Shown here: in pieces, positions 3,501-52,445 of the stretch
Position numbering within the stretch: position 1 is the first letter of the stretch
Layout of the letters: each line of letters opens with the position of its first letter
NCBI GenBank assembly: GCA_000004985.1
Contig: GG738856.1
Length of the DNA: 64,000 bases
Strand: one strand, 5' to 3'
Source of the DNA: Naegleria gruberi
Taxonomy: Eukaryota
Made by a program: the position numbers and the translations under genes
The notes under the pieces: generated by a model
The model's input: the letters and a program-made list of their open reading frames with translations, nothing else
Database searches by the model: none
Told to the model about the DNA's origin: nothing

Positions 3501-4574
3501 TTAATTGAGAGAAACTTGATAAACATCAAAGTGATGATTTAGCTTTGAATTCTCATGGACGCAGTATTCTTGATTTACCTTATTGATTAGTCCACCAAAA
3601 TTATTTCCACATTCATGTACAAAGTATATTCTTCTAATTCTAGAGTGTAAGAGAGCCATTGCACACATACAGCAAGGTTCATGTGAAATAAATAAATCCA
3701 ATCCTTTGCAGAGGTAGGGAATTTCTGTACTCGGTGTGTTAGGTGGTAGCTTCTCAATTGTCTCTATACAGTATTGGGCAATGACATCCACACCAACAAC
3801 AGCACAGTGCCTCAGTGAGCATTTGAATTTTCCCAAATTTGAAAGAGTACCTTCTGTTTCTGAATAGTAAGGAGAGAAAAATGAATTTTTAGATTCGTCT
3901 AGGAATAATTCATCATGAATACTAGATTTAACAATTGTCTTGGTTTGTGGATTGAAAAATAACCCAGAAACTCGCTTACTCTTTTCAAATGAATCAATTA
4001 CTAGTTTTGTACATGTTTCTACAGATTTCTCATCGTGACTATTTACATTTAGTTCTGCTTTTGGATCTAATTTTGCCAATTGAAGTTCAGTTTCATATAA
4101 ATTAACAGTTTTAAGAGGCCAATATTGAGTATTCCATTCCTTCCACTGATATTTCAATTTAGGTCCATATTTTGGAATTTTAAAAAGTTTCAAAATTTTT
4201 TCTGCTTGTTGATGATCCGAACATTCTAAAATTGTTTTAAAAACATGATTTTCTTTTGTAAGTAATTCATCATCCGAGCTTTGAAAAACATTAGAAATCC
4301 ACCTCTGTAAATTTGTATTTTCATCAGTATCATCATCAATATTCAACAATGGATACAAAACACAATAAGTATCACTTCCAATAGTTTTAATTCTTTTAAT
4401 AAAATCTATATCACGAGCCTCCAATGGAAAATTCTTATTCAAATATTGAATCAAGCCTGAAGTTTTTGATTTATTTTCCACTCTTATCCCGATAATATTA
4501 ATCAACTCCAAATCGGTAATCTTCGGCTTGGTGTAGATGTTTTTAATTGATAACTGTGATGATGAATTTTCCAT
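3501..4574 (-). CDS. tRNA-specific adenosine-34 deaminase, non-catalytic subunit (Tad3/ADAT3-like).
   Basis: The C-terminal cytidine/deoxycytidylate deaminase zinc motifs are H-C-A-V-V (the catalytic Glu is replaced by Val, as in Tad3/ADAT3) and PCCMCAMAL. I place the start at the ATG at 4574. The upstream extension MSCPLHLKKKK in the ORF track reads through the T-run that flanks the retroelement and is probably spurious. Confidence 0.6.
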   Translation of the reverse strand: MENSSSQLSIKNIYTKPKITDLELINIIGIRVENKSKTSGLIQYLNKNFPLEARDIDFIKRIKTIGSDTYCVLYPLLNIDDDTDENTNLQRWISNVFQSSDDELLTKENHVFKTILECSDHQQAEKILKLFKIPKYGPKLKYQWKEWNTQYWPLKTVNLYETELQLAKLDPKAELNVNSHDEKSVETCTKLVIDSFEKSKRVSGLFFNPQTKTIVKSSIHDELFLDESKNSFFSPYYSETEGTLSNLGKFKCSLRHCAVVGVDVIAQYCIETIEKLPPNTPSTEIPYLCKGLDLFISHEPCCMCAMALLHSRIRRIYFVHECGNNFGGLINKVNQEYCVHENSKLNHHFDVYQVSLN

Positions 4575-6029: not shown

Positions 6030-6386
6030 TTCAAAATTTATTTTTTAATCTTTTTGTAAAATATACAACAACAAACTGTAGTGAAAATTGTAAAGATTGC
6101 GACCTGTAATTTGAAAATATGTTCAATCTTGATACAATGTCGGAATTATTGCGCTCAGGAAGGGTAATTTCATTGTTTGACTTTAGATGTGTTCATTGTT
6201 GAAAAAGAGAAATAATTCCACAAACACAACATTTCAGTTCTTGCAAGGAACCATGCATAAGGTTGAGGGAACATATTTGGCACTAACCTGAAACTTCAAT
6301 TCTATTGTTTTTAATGACATTTTGTCCCAGTTGATCTATTTGAAAGACAGATGCAACAATGTTTCTTTCACTCACTTATTCAAAAA

Positions 6387-20820: not shown

Positions 20821-21951
20821 ATGACACTCACAAATGCTGATACACTACCAATAGTAATGACATTTCTTGATGTAAAATCAGTGATATTATCATGTTCACT
20901 TGTATCTAGAGAGTGGAATCATTTAACAAGATTAAATTCCATATGGAAGTTAAAATATGAACAAATATTCATGGAGAGTGTATTTAATTGGACTAAACAT
21001 GTTACAAATTCTTCTAATGATGATGATGATTCCGATTCTGATTCTGATTCGAAAGATGAATCTTCTGATAATTCATCATCTTCAGAATCGGAAGGAAGAA
21101 AAAGAAAAAAAAGAAAGAAAATTAAAAAGTCAAAGAAACAAAAAACAAGAAAATCCAATCAAGAAGATTACTATTGGTTTAATTTATTTAAAAAATGTAT
21201 ATTACTATTTCCTATTTTAGATATTGAATATGAAAATGTTGAACTACTTGCCAATCAATTAGATTACAATGAAATTAAAAAAATTACAAATGTTCAACAA
21301 TTACATGAAATAATTTACCACTTGAAAGAAACTATTAGAAATCAAGAAAATGGTCAATCTCAACTCACTTCTGATTATCAATATAAATTTCACAACAGTA
21401 AGGCACTAACTCTAAACAAGGAAATGAAAGCTAATTTAATGCAATTAGCAACAATATTAACAGTTTTATATGATGGACAATCAATATTCTATTTTACAGA
21501 TAATGTTTTAATTAGAGTTAAAAAGGAAATGTGGCAATGGGCTCATGAAGATGAAATTGATTGTTTTGAATGTACTTTACCTGCTTTTTGCATGTTGGTT
21601 CTCTATCCTAAAGCTGAAGAAAATATTCCCTTAAAGAAGATGAAGAAAAAGTATCATTTAATGGTATCTCCATCTATAGAAAATCATAAAAGGGAAGAAG
21701 AATCAGACTCAGAATCAGACAATGATGATGAAAAAGAAGGAGGGAGAGTACTCAATACAACAAATTCATGTTTCTGGTTAGATATGATGGGATACTCTGA
21801 ACCTGAAGGAAAGAATGATATTTGTTTTTGTAATTACTTTGATTGGTGTCCAAATTTCATTTCCTCAGAAAATTCAACCAACAATTCTCCAACCATTAAT
21901 ACATCAATGAATACAAAGAAGAGAACTATTCAGATATCAAAGTATGAATAA
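20821..21951 (+). CDS. F-box protein with an acidic/basic low-complexity linker.
   Basis: N-terminal F-box LPIVMTFLDVKSVILSCSLVSREWNHLTRLNSIWK, then a DSDSDS/KRKKRKK stretch. Confidence 0.55.
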   Translation: MTLTNADTLPIVMTFLDVKSVILSCSLVSREWNHLTRLNSIWKLKYEQIFMESVFNWTKHVTNSSNDDDDSDSDSDSKDESSDNSSSSESEGRKRKKRKKIKKSKKQKTRKSNQEDYYWFNLFKKCILLFPILDIEYENVELLANQLDYNEIKKITNVQQLHEIIYHLKETIRNQENGQSQLTSDYQYKFHNSKALTLNKEMKANLMQLATILTVLYDGQSIFYFTDNVLIRVKKEMWQWAHEDEIDCFECTLPAFCMLVLYPKAEENIPLKKMKKKYHLMVSPSIENHKREEESDSESDNDDEKEGGRVLNTTNSCFWLDMMGYSEPEGKNDICFCNYFDWCPNFISSENSTNNSPTINTSMNTKKRTIQISKYE

Positions 21952-39483: not shown

Positions 39484-40593
39484 TTATTGAGATTTCCAAT
39501 TTGGATCATATTTAACATCACTAACACTATTATGTAAATTAATATATTTAGCATATTCTTGAGCTCCTTCAACATCATTTGGTTCTTCATCATAAGTTTT
39601 AACTTTACCATATTTCTTCAAGTCTGAAATTACCTTTTCATGTGAATGCCATCTTGGATATTGGAATACTTTGTGATGTTTGACTATTTTTTAAAAATTA
39701 TTAAAATTAGAATATAAGAAAATTATTTAAAAATTAGAATAAAAATTATTAGAACATTAGAATTATTAGAATATACATCAAATAAATTACTTACATGGAG
39801 GTAAAACCATATGTAAATGTAAATGTTTAACACTAACTGGAAAGTTATAACCAGCAACAACATTCTGTTCAACATTGAAATTTTCACCAAATCTAGATAA
39901 ATCTCTCTTTTTAAATTCTTGAACACCAGCATTAAATAAATCTTCTAAAAGTGAAATATGAGAAGCATTTAAACAAGTAACATCTTCATAAACAGCAGTT
40001 GGAATGACATCAATGTGATCATCATGAACTGATACACCAAATTTATCATTAAATAAACAAATATTATCATCTCTAAATAAAATTGGAGTACTAGTATTCT
40101 TTCCTGTTAAAATATCAAGAAAAACATTATCAGGTAATTGTTGAATATCTTGTGGAACAAGTGGAAATGAACATCCTGTACAAAAATCAACATGAACTGC
40201 ATTTGGTTTAATACAGGCTGCACATATTTTACCATATTGATGTTTTGTTGTATCTTGTTGAATAACTCCACGATCATTTCTTTCCTTTTCAATCACTTTT
40301 AAATCTTGTTCATTAAAATCTTTCCAATGATTTTTATTAAATCTAAATGATGTTGTTGTTGTTGTTGCTGACATTTGTGAATGATGATATTGTTGTTGTT
40401 GTTGTTGAAGTTGTGAATGATTAAAATTGCTCAAAGGCTTGTTGTTGATCAATAATCGACAAGAAGGCTTCCTCAGGTTGAGAAGAGATTTAATTTTTTT
40501 TAATGATGGAAGAAGCAGTGAACTTGTATATCTATTCATAGATTGTTGATTACTTGTTATCCTCATAAATAATGAAATTGTAATCTTGTTCAA
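39484..40593 (-). CDS. HIT (histidine-triad) family protein. Two exons: 40593..39795 and 39683..39484.
   Basis: The HIT motif HLHLHMV lies at the end of exon 1, preceded by a HINT-like fold (NVFLDILTGK..ILFRDDNICLFNDKF..HIDVIPT). A GTAAGT donor and AATAG acceptor (111-nt intron) extend the protein by 66 aa. The N-terminus has a Q-run and a CAAC..C..GC cysteine cluster. Confidence 0.55.
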
Positions 40594-40742
40594 ATGCCAT
40601 TGTTCAACATTAAAAATATCAAATAAATATCAATTTTAATAAAATCAAATAATAATAATATTAGTGTGGAAAGATTCTCATTCCAGAGAGGGATGATGAT
40701 GGAAAGAAAAGAAATAAAATTTCAAAATTTTTATGAATAAAA

Positions 40743-40967
40743 ATGTTAGAGAATTTAAAAAAAAATGACCAATCTTCCACCATCTTATGTAGTAGTAGTA
40801 TTCCAGATGATGGTGGTGATAATTCCATGAATATACATAATGATGATATTGAAAATATTGAATTATCTATTGGTGATGTTATTTGGTTAAAATTAGAAAC
40901 ATTTCCATGGTGGCCTGCAAAAGTATGTTTTTGTTTTTTATTATTTAATCATTTAATCATCATCATC

Positions 40968-40999
<32 letters not shown>

Positions 41000-42653
41000 T
41001 TATCATCATATAATAATAATAATATAAATATCATCATCATATAAATATTATCATCATATATTAAAATAATAGATTGTAGATTGTAATGATACAAAAATAC
41101 CTAATACAGTATTAAAAGAAAAACAATCACATTTAAAATTAGTTAAATTTTTTAATTCACCACCATCAGAAGAATATTATTGGATTGATTCAAATAAGGA
41201 TATGATTAAATTATTTAAAAATGATCCATATTTATTAGATAATAATGTTACTGTTATTAAAAATAATCCAAATTTAAAAAAAGCAATTCATCAAGCTAAA
41301 CAATTATGTGGATTTGAATTACCTAATAATAATAATAATAATAATTTATCATCTAATGATAATTCTAAAAAAAGAAAGAATGAAAATGAATTATCAAATG
41401 AAAATAAGAAAATGAAAGATTTAGTTATATTAACAGATGAAGAATTAAATTCTATTAAAGAAGAATTATCTAAATCTATTGAAACTAATAATAATAATGA
41501 TATTAAACATTATTTAAATTTTATTAATGATAAATGTAATCAAATTACAGTTGATCAATTAAAAACTTGTAAAATTGGTCAAGTTGTTGCTCAATTAAGA
41601 AAACATTCAGATGAACATATTTCTAAAATGGCAAAAGATTTAGTCAAGACTTGGACTTTATTAGTTTCTTCTTCTTCTTCTTCTTCTAATACTGCATCTA
41701 ATAGTACTAATACTACTACAACTAATAGTGGTACTACTTCAACAAATGCTGCTACTACTACTACTACAGCAACTACTACAACTAAGAATGAAAAGGCTCT
41801 TAATAATACTCCTAAAAAATCATCAACCACAGATGATAAACCTAAAATTAAAAAGGTTATTAATACAACTACTGGTAGTACTAGTACAACAAGTGCAACA
41901 AAATCATCCAACACCAATACCAATACCACCACCACTACTAGTAGTAATAGTAGTACAACTACAACAACTAAACAACCACTTGCTATTAAACCAATTAAAA
42001 CATCACAATTATCCAACCATAATAATCAAGCAGTATCATCATCATCATCATCACCATCATTAAAATCACCAACAACACCACTCTCTGCATCAAGTTCATC
42101 CAATTCACTATCTAGTAGTACATTATTTGATACAAGTAAAATACCACAATGTACTGAAAGTAATCGTAATAGATGGAGACAAAAAATAGGAGAAGGATTA
42201 TCAAAAGTACCAAATTCTACTGAAGATTTAATTATTGAACTATGTGTTGAAATTGAAACACAAGTTTATAATTATTTTAAAACATTAATAACAGCAACAT
42301 CTTCATCATATGATGATCATTGTAGAACATTGAGTAGAAATTTAAATGCATCTAATAATGATGATTTTAGATCAAATGTTTATCATTCAATTATTCCAAT
42401 TGAACAATTACCAATTATGAAAGTACAAGATATGGCTTCAAAAGAGAAACAAAAAGAAAATGCTCTATTACAAGAACGTAAATTACATAATAGTATGGTT
42501 GCTAAACCTGCTGCTGTTGAATCTTCAATGTTTAGATGTGGTAAATGTAAGAAAACTCAATGCACTTTTTATGAAATGCAAACTAGATCTGCTGATGAAC
42601 CTATGACTGCTTTTATTACTTGTCTAAGTTGTGGAAATAGATGGAAACAATAA
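40743..42653 (+). CDS. PWWP-domain / transcription elongation factor TFIIS fusion. Two exons: 40743..40922 and 41073..42653.
   Basis: Exon 1 ends ...IGDVIWLKLETFPWWPAK and splices (GTATGT donor, phase 0; AATAG acceptor) to IVDCNDTKIP...KLVKFFNSPPSEEYYWIDSNKDMIKLF, completing a PWWP fold. Downstream are the TFIIS N-domain (KIGQVVAQLRKHSDEHISKMAKDLVKTW), a TFIIS central region, and the C-terminal zinc ribbon CGKCKK..C..YEMQTRSADEPMTAFITCLSCGNRWK. Confidence 0.75.
40961..41050. repeat. AAT/ATA-type microsatellite inside the PWWP–TFIIS intron.
   Basis: (aataat)n and (atcatcat) runs. Similar short (ATT)n tracts occur at 3172..3200, 12661..12690 and 46571..46630. Confidence 0.6.
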
Positions 42654-42899: not shown

Positions 42900-44806
42900 A
42901 TGAGGAAATTAGATATACAACAAATATTATCTTCACCTCTTACTCAACAACAACAACAAGTTTCACCTAAATATCATCATCCACATCATAATACAAATGT
43001 TAGCCCTCATCATGTCACTTTTTTATCACCACCTCAAACTTCAAATTCATCATCAACAACACCATCCCACCAACATCAACCTCCTTCATCAATAATACAT
43101 TCACAACAATATCTTCATCCACCAATAAATAATTCAACAACATCATTACAACCACCTAATAGTTCTGGAACAGTATCATATGGTGGATTAGGAGGATATA
43201 GTGGAATGCCACCTTATTCACCTATTTTAAATCAACACAATTTAAAACCCAAACGTATTAAATCAAGTATTGAAAGAAAATCACAGAAAATACCATGGGA
43301 ATTACCAACTATTAAAAGAGTTATTAGAATACAAAGTGCACCTAGGAAATATGTTAATAATTCATCATCTTCATCATCTTCATCTTCAAATATTAAATAT
43401 CAACGTAATATAAATACAAGTATATGTAGTGATGGTAAAATTGTATCAAGAAGAAAATATGAACAAGAACAAGAATTTACAAATGAATATGAAACACAAA
43501 GTTATCATGATGATGATCAAGATGAAGATGATGTAAATAATATAATAGATGATGATAATGAATATTTAGAAGAGGAAGAATATGAAGAAGAAGAACCAGA
43601 ATATATTTCAAATTATCATCCAAAACATTTTCATCGTAATATTGAACAAGATGAATTAGAACAACAACAACAATATGAATTGGAACAATCACAACAATAT
43701 GAATCAACAGAAGATGAACAATATGAAGAAGAACCAGAAGAAAGAGAAGATGAATATCAACAAGATGATAATATTTCATATAATTCAAATAATAATTCAA
43801 ATAATTTCAATAACAAACGAGTGATTAATAATGGAAAGAAATCATTTAAAAATCAATTAAATAATAATAGAAAAATTCAACAACAACAATATGAAGAAGA
43901 AAATAATGAAGAGGAACAACCTATTATTGAAGAAGAAGAAGAATCAAAACAATCTATAATAGAAGAAGAAGATGATTATACACCTCCACCACCTAAACCT
44001 AAAAAACCATTTTTAAAAAAAAAGAAACCTATTTCTGTAATACCTCCTAAAAATAATAATATGAAAAAATCAAAATCAAATTCAAATATAGAAGATGAAA
44101 ATAATTTAAATATTTTAAATAATTCTAATAATAGTAGTAATAATATAAATAATATAAATGAAGAATTAATTAATGAAATTTCATTTAATTATGAAGGAGA
44201 AGGAGGAGGAAGTGGAGATGAATTTTCATCAAGTTTAAATAGTAGTTTTAAAAGTACATATTCAAGTAGAAGTTTAAAATCTAGTAGAAGAAGAGTTTTA
44301 AATAGATATAATGATACTTCTATAAATAGTAATATTAATGTTAATAATTCAAATTCTAATAATAATTTAAATAATTTAAATAATAAATTAAATAAGAAAT
44401 ATATTTTAAAAGAAGGTGAAGATTCTATAATAGTTTCATTAGGTAATAAAAATCAACCACCACAATCTAAAAATAATTTAAAAAGAAATTTAATTACTCC
44501 TATAAATGGAAATAATAATTTATTTGTAAATGTTAATAATAATAATAATTTAAATTCAAGTATTGGTCAAAATAATGAAGATGAAATATTAGATAAATGT
44601 TTAAATGATCCTGAAAATGAAATATTGGTATGTTAATTTAATATTTAATATTTATTTAATATTTAATTTAATGATCATGTATTTAAATAATTTAAATAGA
44701 ATTGTATTGAATTTATTCAATCAGAAGGATGGGAAGATCAATTATCAGGTATAATGTTAATTATAAGATTAGCTAAATTTCATTCAGATGTTATTGATTC
44801 TAAAAT
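42900..44806 (+). CDS. Low-complexity (Q/N/S/E-rich) protein. The first exon is 42900..44627 and a second is 44700..44806. The 3' continuation is unresolved.
   Basis: The long ORF ends with a GTATGT donor in phase 0. The next in-frame exon encodes NCIEFIQSEGWEDQLSGIMLIIRLAKFHSDVIDSK (HEAT/TOG-like flavour) and ends at a GTATGT donor. I could not trace further exons in 44900..45880. Confidence 0.35.
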
Positions 44807-46681: not shown

Positions 46682-47483
46682 ATGACCAACGATAAAATAT
46701 CAACTACAACAACAACACCTTCATCATCTGATCAACAAGAAGAAGAACAACAACATCACTCCGATGCTTCTTCTTCTTCTTCATCATCATTATCTGATAG
46801 TAGTGATCATGAAGATGAAAATACAACAATAACATCATCATCTAATAATAATAATAATTCTAATTCTTCTAATAATAATAATAATAATAAATTATCAAAA
46901 TATTCACAAAGATTATTTAATTTACAATTAAGAATGAATCAAGCTAAACAAGATAATATAGAACAATTAAAAGAAGAAGAAGAAGAATTAGATTATAAAA
47001 AGAAAGTTTATTATAAACATAAAAATATAATTGAAAATGAAATGATGACACATATAAATGTAACATTGAATGAATCTCTAGAATTTGAGAAGAAGAGAAA
47101 ACGTTCACAAAAAGAACAACCACAAGGATGGGAATCTTTAAATTCAAATGCATTATATAAACAACATAAAAAGAGAATTAAACAAAATATTACAAATACT
47201 AATAATAATATTACAAATACAAATACAAATATTAATGAATCAACATTAGATAATAATTTATTATCATATGGATCAACTATTAATAATAATAATTTAATAA
47301 CAGAAGAGAATAAACAAGTAATGGTAAATGAATTGACACAAAAAAAGAAATCAAATAAAAAGAAGAAGAATGATGAAGATTCAGATGAAACTGTATTATA
47401 TATTAATAATACTAACAAACATTTTACAAAATCTCTAAGTAAAGCCTATGATAATATACTGATGATATTAGATCTAATTTAGA
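46682..47483 (+). CDS. SYF2-like pre-mRNA splicing factor. The 3' end probably continues into the assembly gap.
   Basis: An acidic Ser-rich N-terminus, a central coiled helix (SKYSQRLFNLQLRMNQAKQDNIEQLKEEEEE), then ETVLYINNTNKHFTKSLSKAYD, which resembles the SYF2 C-terminal block (YINERNKHFNKKLARAYDKYT). The apparent stop lies 1 nt before the N-run. Confidence 0.4.
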
Positions 47484-50400
47484 NNNNNNNNNNNNNNNNN
47501 NNNNNNNNNNNNNNNNNNNNNNNNNNNNNNNNNNNNNNNNNNNNNNNNNNNNNNNNNNNNNNNNNNNNNNNNNNNNNNNNNNNNNNNNNNNNNNNNNNNN
47601 NNNNNNNNNNNNNNNNNNNNNNNNNNNNNNNNNNNNNNNNNNNNNNNNNNNNNNNNNNNNNNNNNNNNNNNNNNNNNNNNNNNNNNNNNNNNNNNNNNNN
47701 NNNNNNNNNNNNNNNNNNNNNNNNNNNNNNNNNNNNNNNNNNNNNNNNNNNNNNNNNNNNNNNNNNNNNNNNNNNNNNNNNNNNNNNNNNNNNNNNNNNN
47801 NNNNNNNNNNNNNNNNNNNNNNNNNNNNNNNNNNNNNNNNNNNNNNNNNNNNNNNNNNNNNNNNNNNNNNNNNNNNNNNNNNNNNNNNNNNNNNNNNNNN
47901 NNNNNNNNNNNNNNNNNNNNNNNNNNNNNNNNNNNNNNNNNNNNNNNNNNNNNNNNNNNNNNNNNNNNNNNNNNNNNNNNNNNNNNNNNNNNNNNNNNNN
48001 NNNNNNNNNNNNNNNNNNNNNNNNNNNNNNNNNNNNNNNNNNNNNNNNNNNNNNNNNNNNNNNNNNNNNNNNNNNNNNNNNNNNNNNNNNNNNNNNNNNN
48101 NNNNNNNNNNNNNNNNNNNNNNNNNNNNNNNNNNNNNNNNNNNNNNNNNNNNNNNNNNNNNNNNNNNNNNNNNNNNNNNNNNNNNNNNNNNNNNNNNNNN
48201 NNNNNNNNNNNNNNNNNNNNNNNNNNNNNNNNNNNNNNNNNNNNNNNNNNNNNNNNNNNNNNNNNNNNNNNNNNNNNNNNNNNNNNNNNNNNNNNNNNNN
48301 NNNNNNNNNNNNNNNNNNNNNNNNNNNNNNNNNNNNNNNNNNNNNNNNNNNNNNNNNNNNNNNNNNNNNNNNNNNNNNNNNNNNNNNNNNNNNNNNNNNN
48401 NNNNNNNNNNNNNNNNNNNNNNNNNNNNNNNNNNNNNNNNNNNNNNNNNNNNNNNNNNNNNNNNNNNNNNNNNNNNNNNNNNNNNNNNNNNNNNNNNNNN
48501 NNNNNNNNNNNNNNNNNNNNNNNNNNNNNNNNNNNNNNNNNNNNNNNNNNNNNNNNNNNNNNNNNNNNNNNNNNNNNNNNNNNNNNNNNNNNNNNNNNNN
48601 NNNNNNNNNNNNNNNNNNNNNNNNNNNNNNNNNNNNNNNNNNNNNNNNNNNNNNNNNNNNNNNNNNNNNNNNNNNNNNNNNNNNNNNNNNNNNNNNNNNN
48701 NNNNNNNNNNNNNNNNNNNNNNNNNNNNNNNNNNNNNNNNNNNNNNNNNNNNNNNNNNNNNNNNNNNNNNNNNNNNNNNNNNNNNNNNNNNNNNNNNNNN
48801 NNNNNNNNNNNNNNNNNNNNNNNNNNNNNNNNNNNNNNNNNNNNNNNNNNNNNNNNNNNNNNNNNNNNNNNNNNNNNNNNNNNNNNNNNNNNNNNNNNNN
48901 NNNNNNNNNNNNNNNNNNNNNNNNNNNNNNNNNNNNNNNNNNNNNNNNNNNNNNNNNNNNNNNNNNNNNNNNNNNNNNNNNNNNNNNNNNNNNNNNNNNN
49001 NNNNNNNNNNNNNNNNNNNNNNNNNNNNNNNNNNNNNNNNNNNNNNNNNNNNNNNNNNNNNNNNNNNNNNNNNNNNNNNNNNNNNNNNNNNNNNNNNNNN
49101 NNNNNNNNNNNNNNNNNNNNNNNNNNNNNNNNNNNNNNNNNNNNNNNNNNNNNNNNNNNNNNNNNNNNNNNNNNNNNNNNNNNNNNNNNNNNNNNNNNNN
49201 NNNNNNNNNNNNNNNNNNNNNNNNNNNNNNNNNNNNNNNNNNNNNNNNNNNNNNNNNNNNNNNNNNNNNNNNNNNNNNNNNNNNNNNNNNNNNNNNNNNN
49301 NNNNNNNNNNNNNNNNNNNNNNNNNNNNNNNNNNNNNNNNNNNNNNNNNNNNNNNNNNNNNNNNNNNNNNNNNNNNNNNNNNNNNNNNNNNNNNNNNNNN
49401 NNNNNNNNNNNNNNNNNNNNNNNNNNNNNNNNNNNNNNNNNNNNNNNNNNNNNNNNNNNNNNNNNNNNNNNNNNNNNNNNNNNNNNNNNNNNNNNNNNNN
49501 NNNNNNNNNNNNNNNNNNNNNNNNNNNNNNNNNNNNNNNNNNNNNNNNNNNNNNNNNNNNNNNNNNNNNNNNNNNNNNNNNNNNNNNNNNNNNNNNNNNN
49601 NNNNNNNNNNNNNNNNNNNNNNNNNNNNNNNNNNNNNNNNNNNNNNNNNNNNNNNNNNNNNNNNNNNNNNNNNNNNNNNNNNNNNNNNNNNNNNNNNNNN
49701 NNNNNNNNNNNNNNNNNNNNNNNNNNNNNNNNNNNNNNNNNNNNNNNNNNNNNNNNNNNNNNNNNNNNNNNNNNNNNNNNNNNNNNNNNNNNNNNNNNNN
49801 NNNNNNNNNNNNNNNNNNNNNNNNNNNNNNNNNNNNNNNNNNNNNNNNNNNNNNNNNNNNNNNNNNNNNNNNNNNNNNNNNNNNNNNNNNNNNNNNNNNN
49901 NNNNNNNNNNNNNNNNNNNNNNNNNNNNNNNNNNNNNNNNNNNNNNNNNNNNNNNNNNNNNNNNNNNNNNNNNNNNNNNNNNNNNNNNNNNNNNNNNNNN
50001 NNNNNNNNNNNNNNNNNNNNNNNNNNNNNNNNNNNNNNNNNNNNNNNNNNNNNNNNNNNNNNNNNNNNNNNNNNNNNNNNNNNNNNNNNNNNNNNNNNNN
50101 NNNNNNNNNNNNNNNNNNNNNNNNNNNNNNNNNNNNNNNNNNNNNNNNNNNNNNNNNNNNNNNNNNNNNNNNNNNNNNNNNNNNNNNNNNNNNNNNNNNN
50201 NNNNNNNNNNNNNNNNNNNNNNNNNNNNNNNNNNNNNNNNNNNNNNNNNNNNNNNNNNNNNNNNNNNNNNNNNNNNNNNNNNNNNNNNNNNNNNNNNNNN
50301 NNNNNNNNNNNNNNNNNNNNNNNNNNNNNNNNNNNNNNNNNNNNNNNNNNNNNNNNNNNNNNNNNNNNNNNNNNNNNNNNNNNNNNNNNNNNNNNNNNNN

Positions 50401-51244
50401 NNNNNNNNNNNNNNNNNNNNNNNNNNNNNNNNNNNNNNNNNNNNNNNNNNNNNNNNNNNNNNNNNNNNNNNNNNNNNNNNNNNNNNNNNNNNNNNNNNNN
50501 NNNNNNNNNNNNNNNNNNNNNNNNNNNNNNNNNNNNNNNNNNNNNNNNNNNNNNNNNNNNNNNNNNNNNNNNNNNNNNNNNNNNNNNNNNNNNNNNNNNN
50601 NNNNNNNNNNNNNNNNNNNNNNNNNNNNNNNNNNNNNNNNNNNNNNNNNNNNNNNNNNNNNNNNNNNNNNNNNNNNNNNNNNNNNNNNNNNNNNNNNNNN
50701 NNNNNNNNNNNNNNNNNNNNNNNNNNNNNNNNNNNNNNNNNNNNNNNNNNNNNNNNNNNNNNNNNNNNNNNNNNNNNNNNNNNNNNNNNNNNNNNNNNNN
50801 NNNNNNNNNNNNNNNNNNNNNNNNNNNNNNNNNNNNNNNNNNNNNNNNNNNNNNNNNNNNNNNNNNNNNNNNNNNNNNNNNNNNNNNNNNNNNNNNNNNN
50901 NNNNNNNNNNNNNNNNNNNNNNNNNNNNNNNNNNNNNNNNNNNNNNNNNNNNNNNNNNNNNNNNNNNNNNNNNNNNNNNNNNNNNNNNNNNNNNNNNNNN
51001 NNNNNNNNNNNNNNNNNNNNNNNNNNNNNNNNNNNNNNNNNNNNNNNNNNNNNNNNNNNNNNNNNNNNNNNNNNNNNNNNNNNNNNNNNNNNNNNNNNNN
51101 NNNNNNNNNNNNNNNNNNNNNNNNNNNNNNNNNNNNNNNNNNNNNNNNNNNNNNNNNNNNNNNNNNNNNNNNNNNNNNNNNNNNNNNNNNNNNNNNNNNN
51201 NNNNNNNNNNNNNNNNNNNNNNNNNNNNNNNNNNNNNNNNNNNN
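47484..51244. other. Assembly gap of 3761 N.
   Basis: Poly-N run. The ORF-track entries 47424..51269 and 47479..51249 are translations of N and are meaningless. Confidence 1.
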
Positions 51245-52445
51245 TGCACTTACATTGGATCAAATTCATAGAGCAGTATTTGTTAGTATTAATACACCTA
51301 TTGAAACATTATCAGTACAAGAATTATCAAATTTCTTTTCATTTTGTGGTAGTGTTGAAAAGATTATAATGGTAGATGATTTAAATGGAGCAGTTGTATG
51401 TTTAGAAAATAATGAATCATTCTCTACTTCATTATTATTAAATGAAATGAAATTAAATGAAAAGACACAATTATATATTTTTAATTTGTGTGATTTACTT
51501 GGAATTCCAAGAAAAAAATCATCACCTAATCAAGTACCATTAAATAATTCACAACAACATCAACAACAATATGAAACATTTGAAACACCTTCATCACAAT
51601 TAGCTATTCAAGGATTATTTCAAGAAGGTTTTATTCAATCTAAATTAATATTTGAACAATTAAAAAGTAAAGCTATTAAATTAGATCAAGAGAATGATAT
51701 TTCTAAAAAAGTACAATATTCATTAAATTATAGTAAAGATCAATGGATTAAATTTGCTAAACAAATGAATGAAAATGTTGAAAATGTAAAATTAACATTT
51801 ATACCAATTAGAGAATCATTTAATTTACAAACAGTTTCACAAAGAGCTGAACAATTAAATACACAAACACAACAATATTTCTCATATATTAAATCAAGAG
51901 CAAAAGAATTAGGTAAAGATTTAAATGAAAAGATTAAACAACAAGATCAAAAAACTCAATTCACTGCTAAAATTAAAGATATGAAAATTGAAGAAAATTT
52001 ATCAAAGGCAGGTGAAGCTGTTGCAAAGAATTGGTCTGCAATGACTTCTTTTTTTAAACAAAAGGTTTCATCTAATAATTCTAATAGCTCTACATTTAAT
52101 CATTCTAATAATTCAATTAATTCTACATCATATAATAATCAATATAATCAATATAATTCAAGTGAAGATTCCTATTATAATAATACACAAACAAACAAAT
52201 CATTACCACCACTTCCAAATAAGAATAAGCAACAACCAATTACTTCACTTGAACAAGATGATTCAATGTGGTCTAATGATAATAATAATTCATCAAATAA
52301 TCAACCACAATATTCATTAGATACAAATGAAGATGATGATTTCCCTGTTGAATATCAAAATACTACTACAACTAGTACTATTACTACCACTGCTAATAAT
52401 AATAATACAAATAATCAACAAAGTGCTGATAGTTTCTTTGATTAA
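51245..52445 (+). CDS. Partial CDS with its 5' end in the gap: an RRM-like fold followed by a long Q/N/S-rich tail.
   Basis: The frame is open from the gap edge. VFVSINTPIETLSVQELSNFFSFCGSVEKIIMVDDLNGAVVCLENNESFSTSLLLNEMKL resembles an RRM-like beta-alpha-beta unit. Confidence 0.35.

Follow-up and report, generated by a model that had tools for sequence, protein, structure and literature searches.

A PWWP domain assembled by splicing precedes a complete set of TFIIS domains in Naegleria gruberi and its heterolobosean relatives

The window analysed here is a stretch of 64,000 nucleotides (nt) from the Naegleria gruberi contig GG738856.1 (GenBank assembly GCA_000004985.1). On its plus strand, positions 40743-42653 hold a two-exon gene for a protein of 586 amino acids (aa) that combines a PWWP domain with the transcription elongation factor TFIIS. 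We are practically certain that this locus is the N. gruberi member of a heterolobosean TFIIS family with the order PWWP domain, linker with a KKRK cluster, TFIIS N-terminal domain (TND, domain I), serine/threonine (S/T)-rich linker, domain II and domain III. As a whole, the best explanation of the locus is a TFIIS family member with a PWWP domain that would tether it to methylated nucleosomes, and we regard this explanation as likely. The PWWP-TFIIS architecture itself is already known. As far as we found, the heterolobosean family and its conserved intron are undescribed, and a literature search for Naegleria and TFIIS yielded nothing relevant.

The gene is composed of exon 1 (40743-40922, plus strand), an intron (40923-41072, plus strand) and exon 2 (41073-42653, plus strand); the 586-aa product was obtained by splicing with a script. 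Exon 1 comprises codons 1-60. It starts with the ATG at 40743, which is preceded by an in-frame stop codon 9 nt upstream, and encodes a poorly conserved N-terminal tail followed by PWWP strand β1 with the GDVIWLKLETFPWWPAK motif. The last residues, ...FPWWPAK, are reached at 40922. The intron is a phase-0 spliceosomal intron of 150 nt (GTATGT...AATAG) with stop codons in all frames and a GC content of 10.7% compared to 26-29% for the exons. It contains no AG apart from the acceptor. The AG that follows at 41079 was rejected as an acceptor, as it shifts the frame straight into a stop codon. Exon 2 provides codons 61-586 and the TAA stop codon (42651-42653), and thereby the rest of the PWWP domain, the linker, the TND, the S/T-rich linker and TFIIS domains II and III. 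Its frame is open from 41073 to the TAA, and it is collinear with the orthologue from Naegleria lovaniensis (P0001) across 95% of its length; additional introns hidden in the long S/T linker were rejected on these two grounds. A sequence-only reading of the same DNA had placed the end of exon 1 at ...FPWWPAK, followed by a 150-nt phase-0 GTATGT...AG intron, and both coordinates and sequence were reproduced exactly. Two minor features accompany this part of the gene. Between 40950 and 41060, the intron consists mostly of imperfect ATCATCATCATATAATAATAAT-type repeats, and only 4 G residues are present in the entire intron. An 11-codon upstream open reading frame (ORF; MNKNVREFKKK*) at 40733-40768 overlaps the start ATG at 40743 in another frame.

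Domains were assigned with Pfam, and all four matches of the protein lie above the curated cut-offs. The PWWP match (PF00855; E 1.5e-12, profile positions 1-90 of 93, 48.2 bits vs. a cut-off of 25.6) comprises residues 44-137, i.e. 40872-41303 on the plus strand, interrupted by the intron. It is obtained in full only with the spliced product, in which exon 1 accounts for profile positions 1-19 and exon 2 for the remainder. Exon 2 alone has no PWWP match at E ≤ 0.1 and the unspliced exon-1 ORF covers profile positions 1-19 alone; this means, splicing creates the PWWP domain, and chance falls far short as an explanation. In the PDB, the PWWP chains of NSD3 and WHSC1L1 align in one single stretch across the exon junction.

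The intron that splits the PWWP domain recurs in the relatives of N. gruberi. The N. lovaniensis orthologue C9374_000563 (P0001, 618 aa) is 44% identical over 95% of the query and contains the same four Pfam families. Its locus (L001) has one phase-0 intron of 168 nt (6136-6303, GTATGT...TAG) at the identical position (...PYWPSK / ILNSND...), and the coding sequence of exon 1 aligns between both species. A metagenomic, Acrasis-like locus (L003) has an upstream exon ending in ...GYPWWPAR, a 34-nt phase-0 intron (3753-3786, GTATGT...CAG) and a second intron; its spliced product of 582 aa comprises all four Pfam domains. In a Percolomonas-like contig from a Logan assembly (L005), ...SYPWWPGE is followed by an intron at approximately 1365-1480 (GTAAGT...TATAG) and by IFDVND..., and a Naegleria-like metagenomic contig (L004) that starts within the intron (1-38) has its acceptor at the same codon. 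The phase-0 intron is thus kept in N. gruberi, N. lovaniensis and the Acrasis-like and Percolomonas-like loci with lengths between 34 and 168 nt, and from these sequences it appears to be an old heterolobosean intron. At the mRNA level, the transcriptome protein P0129 from Percolomonas sp. WS runs contiguously over the junction (...PWWPGEIYDEHD...) and on into TFIIS domains II and III. It comprises a PWWP domain, a weak TND, the central domain and the zinc ribbon. P0129 is mRNA-level evidence from a related lineage that PWWP and TFIIS are encoded in one reading frame.

For Acrasis kona, the annotation splits the gene into two partial proteins, P0136 (PWWP domain and start of the TND) and P0005 (279 aa, domains II and III), and each of them aligns to one half of the L003 protein. 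P0005 abuts a contig end (L002, 1-939, JAOPGA020001522.1), and the A. kona gene seems to have been split by an assembly break into two models. A TFIIS without PWWP domain in A. kona was considered and rejected, as P0005 abuts the contig end and the separate P0136 carries PWWP and the start of the TND. The sequence-only reading had proposed to look for the fusion in related species, and the same architecture is present in Naegleria, Percolomonas and Acrasis-like lineages.

These comparisons also bear on the possibility that the gene model is an artefact. In that case, exon 1 would belong to a different transcript, be an ORF by chance or remain untranslated as a leader, and the true start would lie in exon 2, e.g. 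at M103 (41202). The public N. gruberi model would be compatible with a shorter gene, since it consists only of the last 116 residues. This protein (P0003, 'predicted protein, partial', 116 aa) is 100% identical to the C-terminus of the product described here and spans 42306-42653 of the window, i.e. the last part of domain II plus the zinc ribbon; it contains neither PWWP domain nor TND and lacks the larger part of the gene. Yet exon 1 encodes exactly the missing β1 strand with the PWWP motif, and a full-length domain match arises only upon splicing. Furthermore, N. lovaniensis, L003 and L005 retain both the coding sequence of exon 1 and the site of the intron, the mRNA-derived Percolomonas protein is contiguous over the junction, and the acceptor is the only AG of the intron. 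An artefactual gene model is hardly credible in the light of these data, and it is very unlikely that exon 1 belongs to something else. The 586-aa two-exon model therefore corrects a 116-aa public fragment that hides PWWP and TND.

Behind the PWWP domain, all parts of TFIIS are found. The TND, the helical bundle of domain I, extends over residues ~178-262 (41424-41678, plus strand) and contains the 'LW' motif as LVKTW. Within it, Med26/TFIIS-N (PF08711) matches residues 217-256 (E 5.3e-13, 49 bits vs. a cut-off of 20.6), and matches in the PDB are TCEA3 domain I (1wjt), the TCEA1 TND (6zv4, 7cnf) and the Elongin-A TND (6zuz). The central domain (domain II, TFIIS_M, PF07500) encompasses residues 421-533 (42153-42491, plus strand; E 2.9e-16, profile positions 2-113 of 114) and aligns with human TCEA1 and yeast Dst1 chains from RNA polymerase II (Pol II) complexes. 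The zinc ribbon (domain III, Zn_ribbon_TFIIS, PF01096) follows at residues 547-585 (42531-42647, plus strand; E 2.5e-17, full profile 1-39 of 39), and its four zinc ligands C549, C552, C577 and C580 are all aligned to TCEA1 cysteines. In canonical TFIIS, the tip of the acidic hairpin, with its invariant D-E pair, acts as catalytic loop and reaches into the active site of Pol II. Here, the hairpin tip R-S-A-D-E can be read directly at residues 565-569 (D568, E569; 42585-42599, plus strand), and QTRSADEPMT (residues 563-572) is the same as in human TCEA1 with an intact QTRSADEP loop. When compared with the PDB, the C-terminal half yields human TCEA1 (E 3e-28) and yeast Dst1 (E 6e-20). With domains I, II and III, the four cysteines and the QTRSADEP hairpin all present, the protein bears every sequence feature of an active TFIIS. 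That a complete TFIIS lies behind the PWWP domain had been recognized from the DNA sequence, and the four Pfam domains, the PDB matches to TCEA1 and Dst1 and the orthologue all agree with it.

Two linkers connect these domains. The linker between PWWP and TND contains the basic cluster KKRKN (residues 159-163, 41367-41381, plus strand), a putative nuclear localisation signal. The KKRK of N. gruberi is unchanged in N. lovaniensis despite the divergent linker around it, and probably acts as such a signal. In C9374_000563, this linker is a K/D/E-rich repeat and longer than in N. gruberi. The second linker (residues ~263-410, 41679-42122, plus strand) is rich in S, T and N and of low complexity, as read from the translation, and is presumably disordered. 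Its N. lovaniensis counterpart has a similar composition and another sequence.

A profile of the PWWP and TND half was searched against 1.84 billion representative proteins. The 116 matches obtained were sorted by domain scan and Pfam into five groups. Proteins of the heterolobosean type with PWWP, TND, II and III form group a (P0123-P0126, P0129, P0133, P0148, P0182, P0192); several of them end at the PWWP intron through intron-blind gene calling. Group b contains PWWP-TFIIS proteins of other source, P0184 and P0139. Among the members of groups a and b, P0126 and P0184 are metagenomic homologues. P0139 (536 aa) from a GC-rich eukaryote comprises PWWP, TND and a zinc ribbon of the TFIIS type without the RSADE acidic loop. 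It may represent a TFIIS-like paralogue with no catalytic activity, which calls trypanosome TFIIS2-2 to mind. Group c consists of fungal proteins with PWWP and TND and without TFIIS domains II and III, from the basidiomycetes Tremella, Exidia and Pseudozyma (P0176, P0209, P0231; 350-430 aa). They represent the layout of LEDGF and HRP2 in fungi. Groups d and e are ordinary PWWP proteins and ordinary TFIIS proteins, respectively.

For the PWWP domain, which as a class belongs to the Royal superfamily of methyl-lysine or DNA readers, a structure was predicted. The sequence-only reading had proposed to model the PWWP β-barrel, and a PWWP fold was indeed obtained, namely for the N. lovaniensis orthologue. 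A fragment of this protein with a nine-row alignment was used, which is ~50% identical to N. gruberi over the N-terminal region. The model has a mean predicted local distance difference test (pLDDT) score of 85.4 and a predicted template modelling (pTM) score of 0.77, and displays five β-strands and then helices, i.e. the five-stranded β-barrel and C-terminal helical bundle of a PWWP fold. In a Foldseek search of the PDB, the best 50 matches of this model were all PWWP domains. Its nearest structural neighbours are BRPF1, LEDGF and DNMT3B, which are established readers of histone H3 trimethylated at lysine 36 (H3K36me3). In N. gruberi, a profile alignment to NSD2 and DNMT3B predicts an aromatic cage composed of F54, W57 and F86; the corresponding reference cages we take to be Y233/W236/F266 in NSD2 and F236/W239/W263 in DNMT3B.

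By analogy with established TFIIS, the protein could act as follows. Domain II would dock on the jaw and funnel of Pol II, and domain III would enter the pore and bring D568 and E569 to the active site, where backtracked RNA would be cleaved and transcription restarted. The TND would recruit partners with TND-interacting motifs of the IWS1 or Mediator type. The PWWP cage (F54, W57, F86), together with a basic surface, would keep TFIIS bound to methylated nucleosomes within the bodies of transcribed genes. Through such tethering, more TFIIS would be present locally at nucleosome barriers at which Pol II backtracks. The obvious candidate mark would be H3K36me3. A chromatin immunoprecipitation sequencing (ChIP-seq) survey found it along expressed gene bodies in every profiled species, N. 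gruberi included (bioRxiv 10.1101/2025.03.17.643675), so that a suitable mark is present in N. gruberi. The coupling of mark reading to the rescue of arrested Pol II, as put forward in the sequence-only reading, is plausible as an inference from other systems.

For methyl-nucleosome tethering by the PWWP domain taken by itself, we see the chances as about even, since the TFIIS2-1 PWWP domain of Trypanosoma brucei is apparently inert. Several points weigh against the explanation preferred here. In T. brucei, the sole system with experiments, the TFIIS2-1 PWWP domain bound neither methylated histones nor DNA (PMC8638923, PMC7468196), and its removal left nuclear and subnuclear localisation unchanged (PMC2610381). 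In N. lovaniensis, the position of F54 is occupied by a Cys (P0001 residue 39, L001 ~6100-6135; GCPYWP vs. TFPWWP). This means, the cage is not strictly conserved even within the genus, and the Cys at the first cage position may weaken methyl-lysine binding in that species. The fold evidence comes from the N. lovaniensis protein with its ~50% identity over the N-terminal region, and the support for the N. gruberi junction is comparative, i.e. provided by the conserved intron position and the contiguous mRNA-derived Percolomonas orthologue. Finally, binding, occupancy and cleavage by the heterolobosean TFIIS are deduced from other systems.

The T. brucei results and the Cys in N. lovaniensis would be expected if the protein were a working TFIIS with a PWWP domain that does not read histone methylation and instead binds DNA or another protein or is largely vestigial. 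This possibility deserves to be taken seriously, although we consider it the less probable one. All three cage positions are aromatic in N. gruberi, and the cage columns are aromatic in most homologues, P0126, P0129, P0184 and P0206 among them. In addition, the domain has been retained in Naegleria, Percolomonas and Acrasis-like lineages, and the best structural neighbours are H3K36me3 readers.

The closest known counterpart in terms of architecture is found in trypanosomes. Uzureau et al. described TbTFIIS2-1 as a TFIIS that has a PWWP domain at its N-terminus and domains I-III, and likewise proteins from Leishmania and the red alga Cyanidioschyzon merolae (CMT501C; Uzureau et al., 2008, PMC2610381). 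In their work, single knockouts remained viable. T. brucei TFIIS2-1 (Tb927.2.3580) shows the same domain order as the Naegleria protein, with PWWP, domain I with LW motif, domain II and domain III with acidic loop. By its architecture, the N. gruberi protein belongs to the same class: one polypeptide carries the PWWP domain ahead of domains I, II and III, in the order 44-137, 217-256, 421-533 and 547-585. In contrast to T. brucei TFIIS2-1, the Naegleria gene has an intron within the PWWP domain. A further difference is that the TFIIS2-1 PWWP domain showed no methyl-histone binding, whereas that of N. gruberi is a candidate reader. Both Naegleria and T. brucei belong to Discoba. In C. merolae, the fusion was deemed independent and convergent by the authors; this protein was compared by its description. 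The novelty implied by the sequence-only reading was overstated, since a 2008 paper had already reported the fusion from trypanosomatids and a red alga, and it is annotated in N. lovaniensis: C9374_000563 is publicly named 'hypothetical protein', yet its four domains are already annotated.

The PWWP structures of T. brucei TFIIS2-1 and TFIIS2-2 have been solved (Wang et al., 2016; Wang et al., 2019, 2NAS; both as cited in PMC8638923), and 2nas_A was confirmed as a T. brucei chain. The heterolobosean PWWP profile also hits PDB chain 2m1h_A, which bears the deposited name 'Transcription elongation factor S-II', with an E of 7.6e-6, and NSD2/3, DNMT3B and MSH6 score above this chain. In contrast to TFIIS2-1, the TFIIS2-2 PWWP domain binds H4K17me3 and H3K32me3 (PMC8638923, PMC7468196). 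TFIIS2-2 co-purifies with Pol II subunits and the PAF1 complex (Staneva et al., 2021, PMC8559703). The Naegleria protein differs from TFIIS2-2 by its complete zinc ribbon with acidic loop. To our knowledge, TFIIS2-2 is not among the TFIIS proteins that contain domain III.

Trypanosomatids possess a TFIIS1 without PWWP domain beside the PWWP forms, and TFIIS expansions occurred in several lineages (PMC2610381). Accordingly, the N. gruberi protein could be a specialised paralogue like TFIIS2-1 beside TFIIS1, and a canonical TFIIS encoded elsewhere would perform general arrest rescue. As to the anatomy, this scenario is compatible with the explanation that we prefer, but it would change the importance of the protein. 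That the family diversifies is also illustrated by P0139 with its zinc ribbon devoid of the acidic loop. On the other hand, a second TFIIS was sought in the 64-kb window and none was found, and each heterolobosean TFIIS recovered either has a PWWP domain or is N-terminally truncated. A word-limited search with domains II and III returned no other Naegleria TFIIS; it also missed the N. lovaniensis orthologue and is for this reason a weak argument. Altogether, a specialised paralogue is conceivable and somewhat unlikely.

At the opposite end lies the proposal that Naegleria and other heteroloboseans have no TFIIS besides the PWWP-TND-TFIIS protein, and that fusion and intron were inherited at least from the heterolobosean ancestor and perhaps from a common ancestor with kinetoplastids; the fusion would then not be peculiar to trypanosomes. 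The presence throughout Heterolobosea together with the conserved PWWP intron makes an old origin within Discoba plausible; for the proposal in its entirety, we see only a slim chance. If it were true, with a sole TFIIS and an intact cage, the rescue of all backtracked Pol II in these free-living amoebae would be routed through a reader of histone methylation. This would offer a natural and genetically tractable test of whether the action of TFIIS is targeted by chromatin marks.

Two other groups of proteins resemble the Naegleria protein in part. LEDGF and HRP2 are PWWP and TND proteins that dock on short motifs in IWS1 and other factors (PMC9987994). The sequence-only reading had PWWP proteins of the LEDGF/HDGF family docking to TFIIS-N-like domains, which is imprecise, as LEDGF and HRP2 carry PWWP and TND themselves. 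From its sequence, the N-terminal half of the Naegleria protein has the layout of these metazoan H3K36me readers. With this layout in mind, the protein looks like a LEDGF-type reader module fused to a TFIIS catalytic module. It is no member of the LEDGF/HRP2 group: PWWP and TND are present, but are followed by complete TFIIS domains II and III, and the likeness is confined to the N-terminal half. LEDGF/p75 (PSIP1) and HRP2 (HDGFL2), like the fungal proteins P0176, P0209 and P0231, lack domains II and III and hence do not stimulate RNA cleavage. In addition, the TND of LEDGF and HRP2 is of the integrase-binding domain (IBD) subtype that reads FxGF-containing motifs.

A single polypeptide with a histone-mark reader and a TFIIS-like domain II that binds Pol II is also found in yeast Bye1 and human PHF3 and DIDO1. 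These proteins read the mark (H3K4me3) through a PHD finger, contain a SPOC domain and lack the domain III zinc ribbon, and accordingly are not known to stimulate cleavage. In the Naegleria protein, Pfam found neither PHD nor SPOC and the zinc ribbon is complete, which sets it apart from this group.

So far, PWWP-TFIIS had been regarded as a special feature of trypanosomatids, with a single convergent instance in a red alga. The data presented here do not overturn the current understanding; what is new are the lineage, the corrected gene model and the conserved intron. They also show that the pairing of PWWP and TND known from LEDGF and HRP2 can occur on TFIIS itself. With Naegleria, a free-living and culturable organism with H3K36me3 ChIP-seq data in hand is available for asking whether a mark reader targets transcript cleavage.

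In the neighbourhood, the gene is preceded by a divergently oriented gene at 39787-40374 (minus strand) for a protein with a HIT-type DcpS_C domain (Pfam E 5e-13). The head-to-head arrangement of DcpS_C/HIT and TFIIS genes is also found in N. lovaniensis. A metagenomic ORF, P0125, is a chimera of the N-terminal TFIIS half and the DcpS_C/HIT neighbour. Downstream, an ORF at 42900-44636 encodes 578 aa of extremely low complexity (N/S/Q/E-rich). It is no counterpart of the kinase-PARP gene of N. lovaniensis, so that synteny is kept on the upstream side only. Elsewhere in the window, the ORF at 20821-21948 corresponds exactly to NAEGRDRAFT_64992 (XP_002679708.1). Two ORFs at 47424-51269 and 47479-51249 (minus strand) of ~1250-1280 aa overlap almost completely in different frames of one and the same strand, which may reflect a frameshift, an intron or a compositional artefact.

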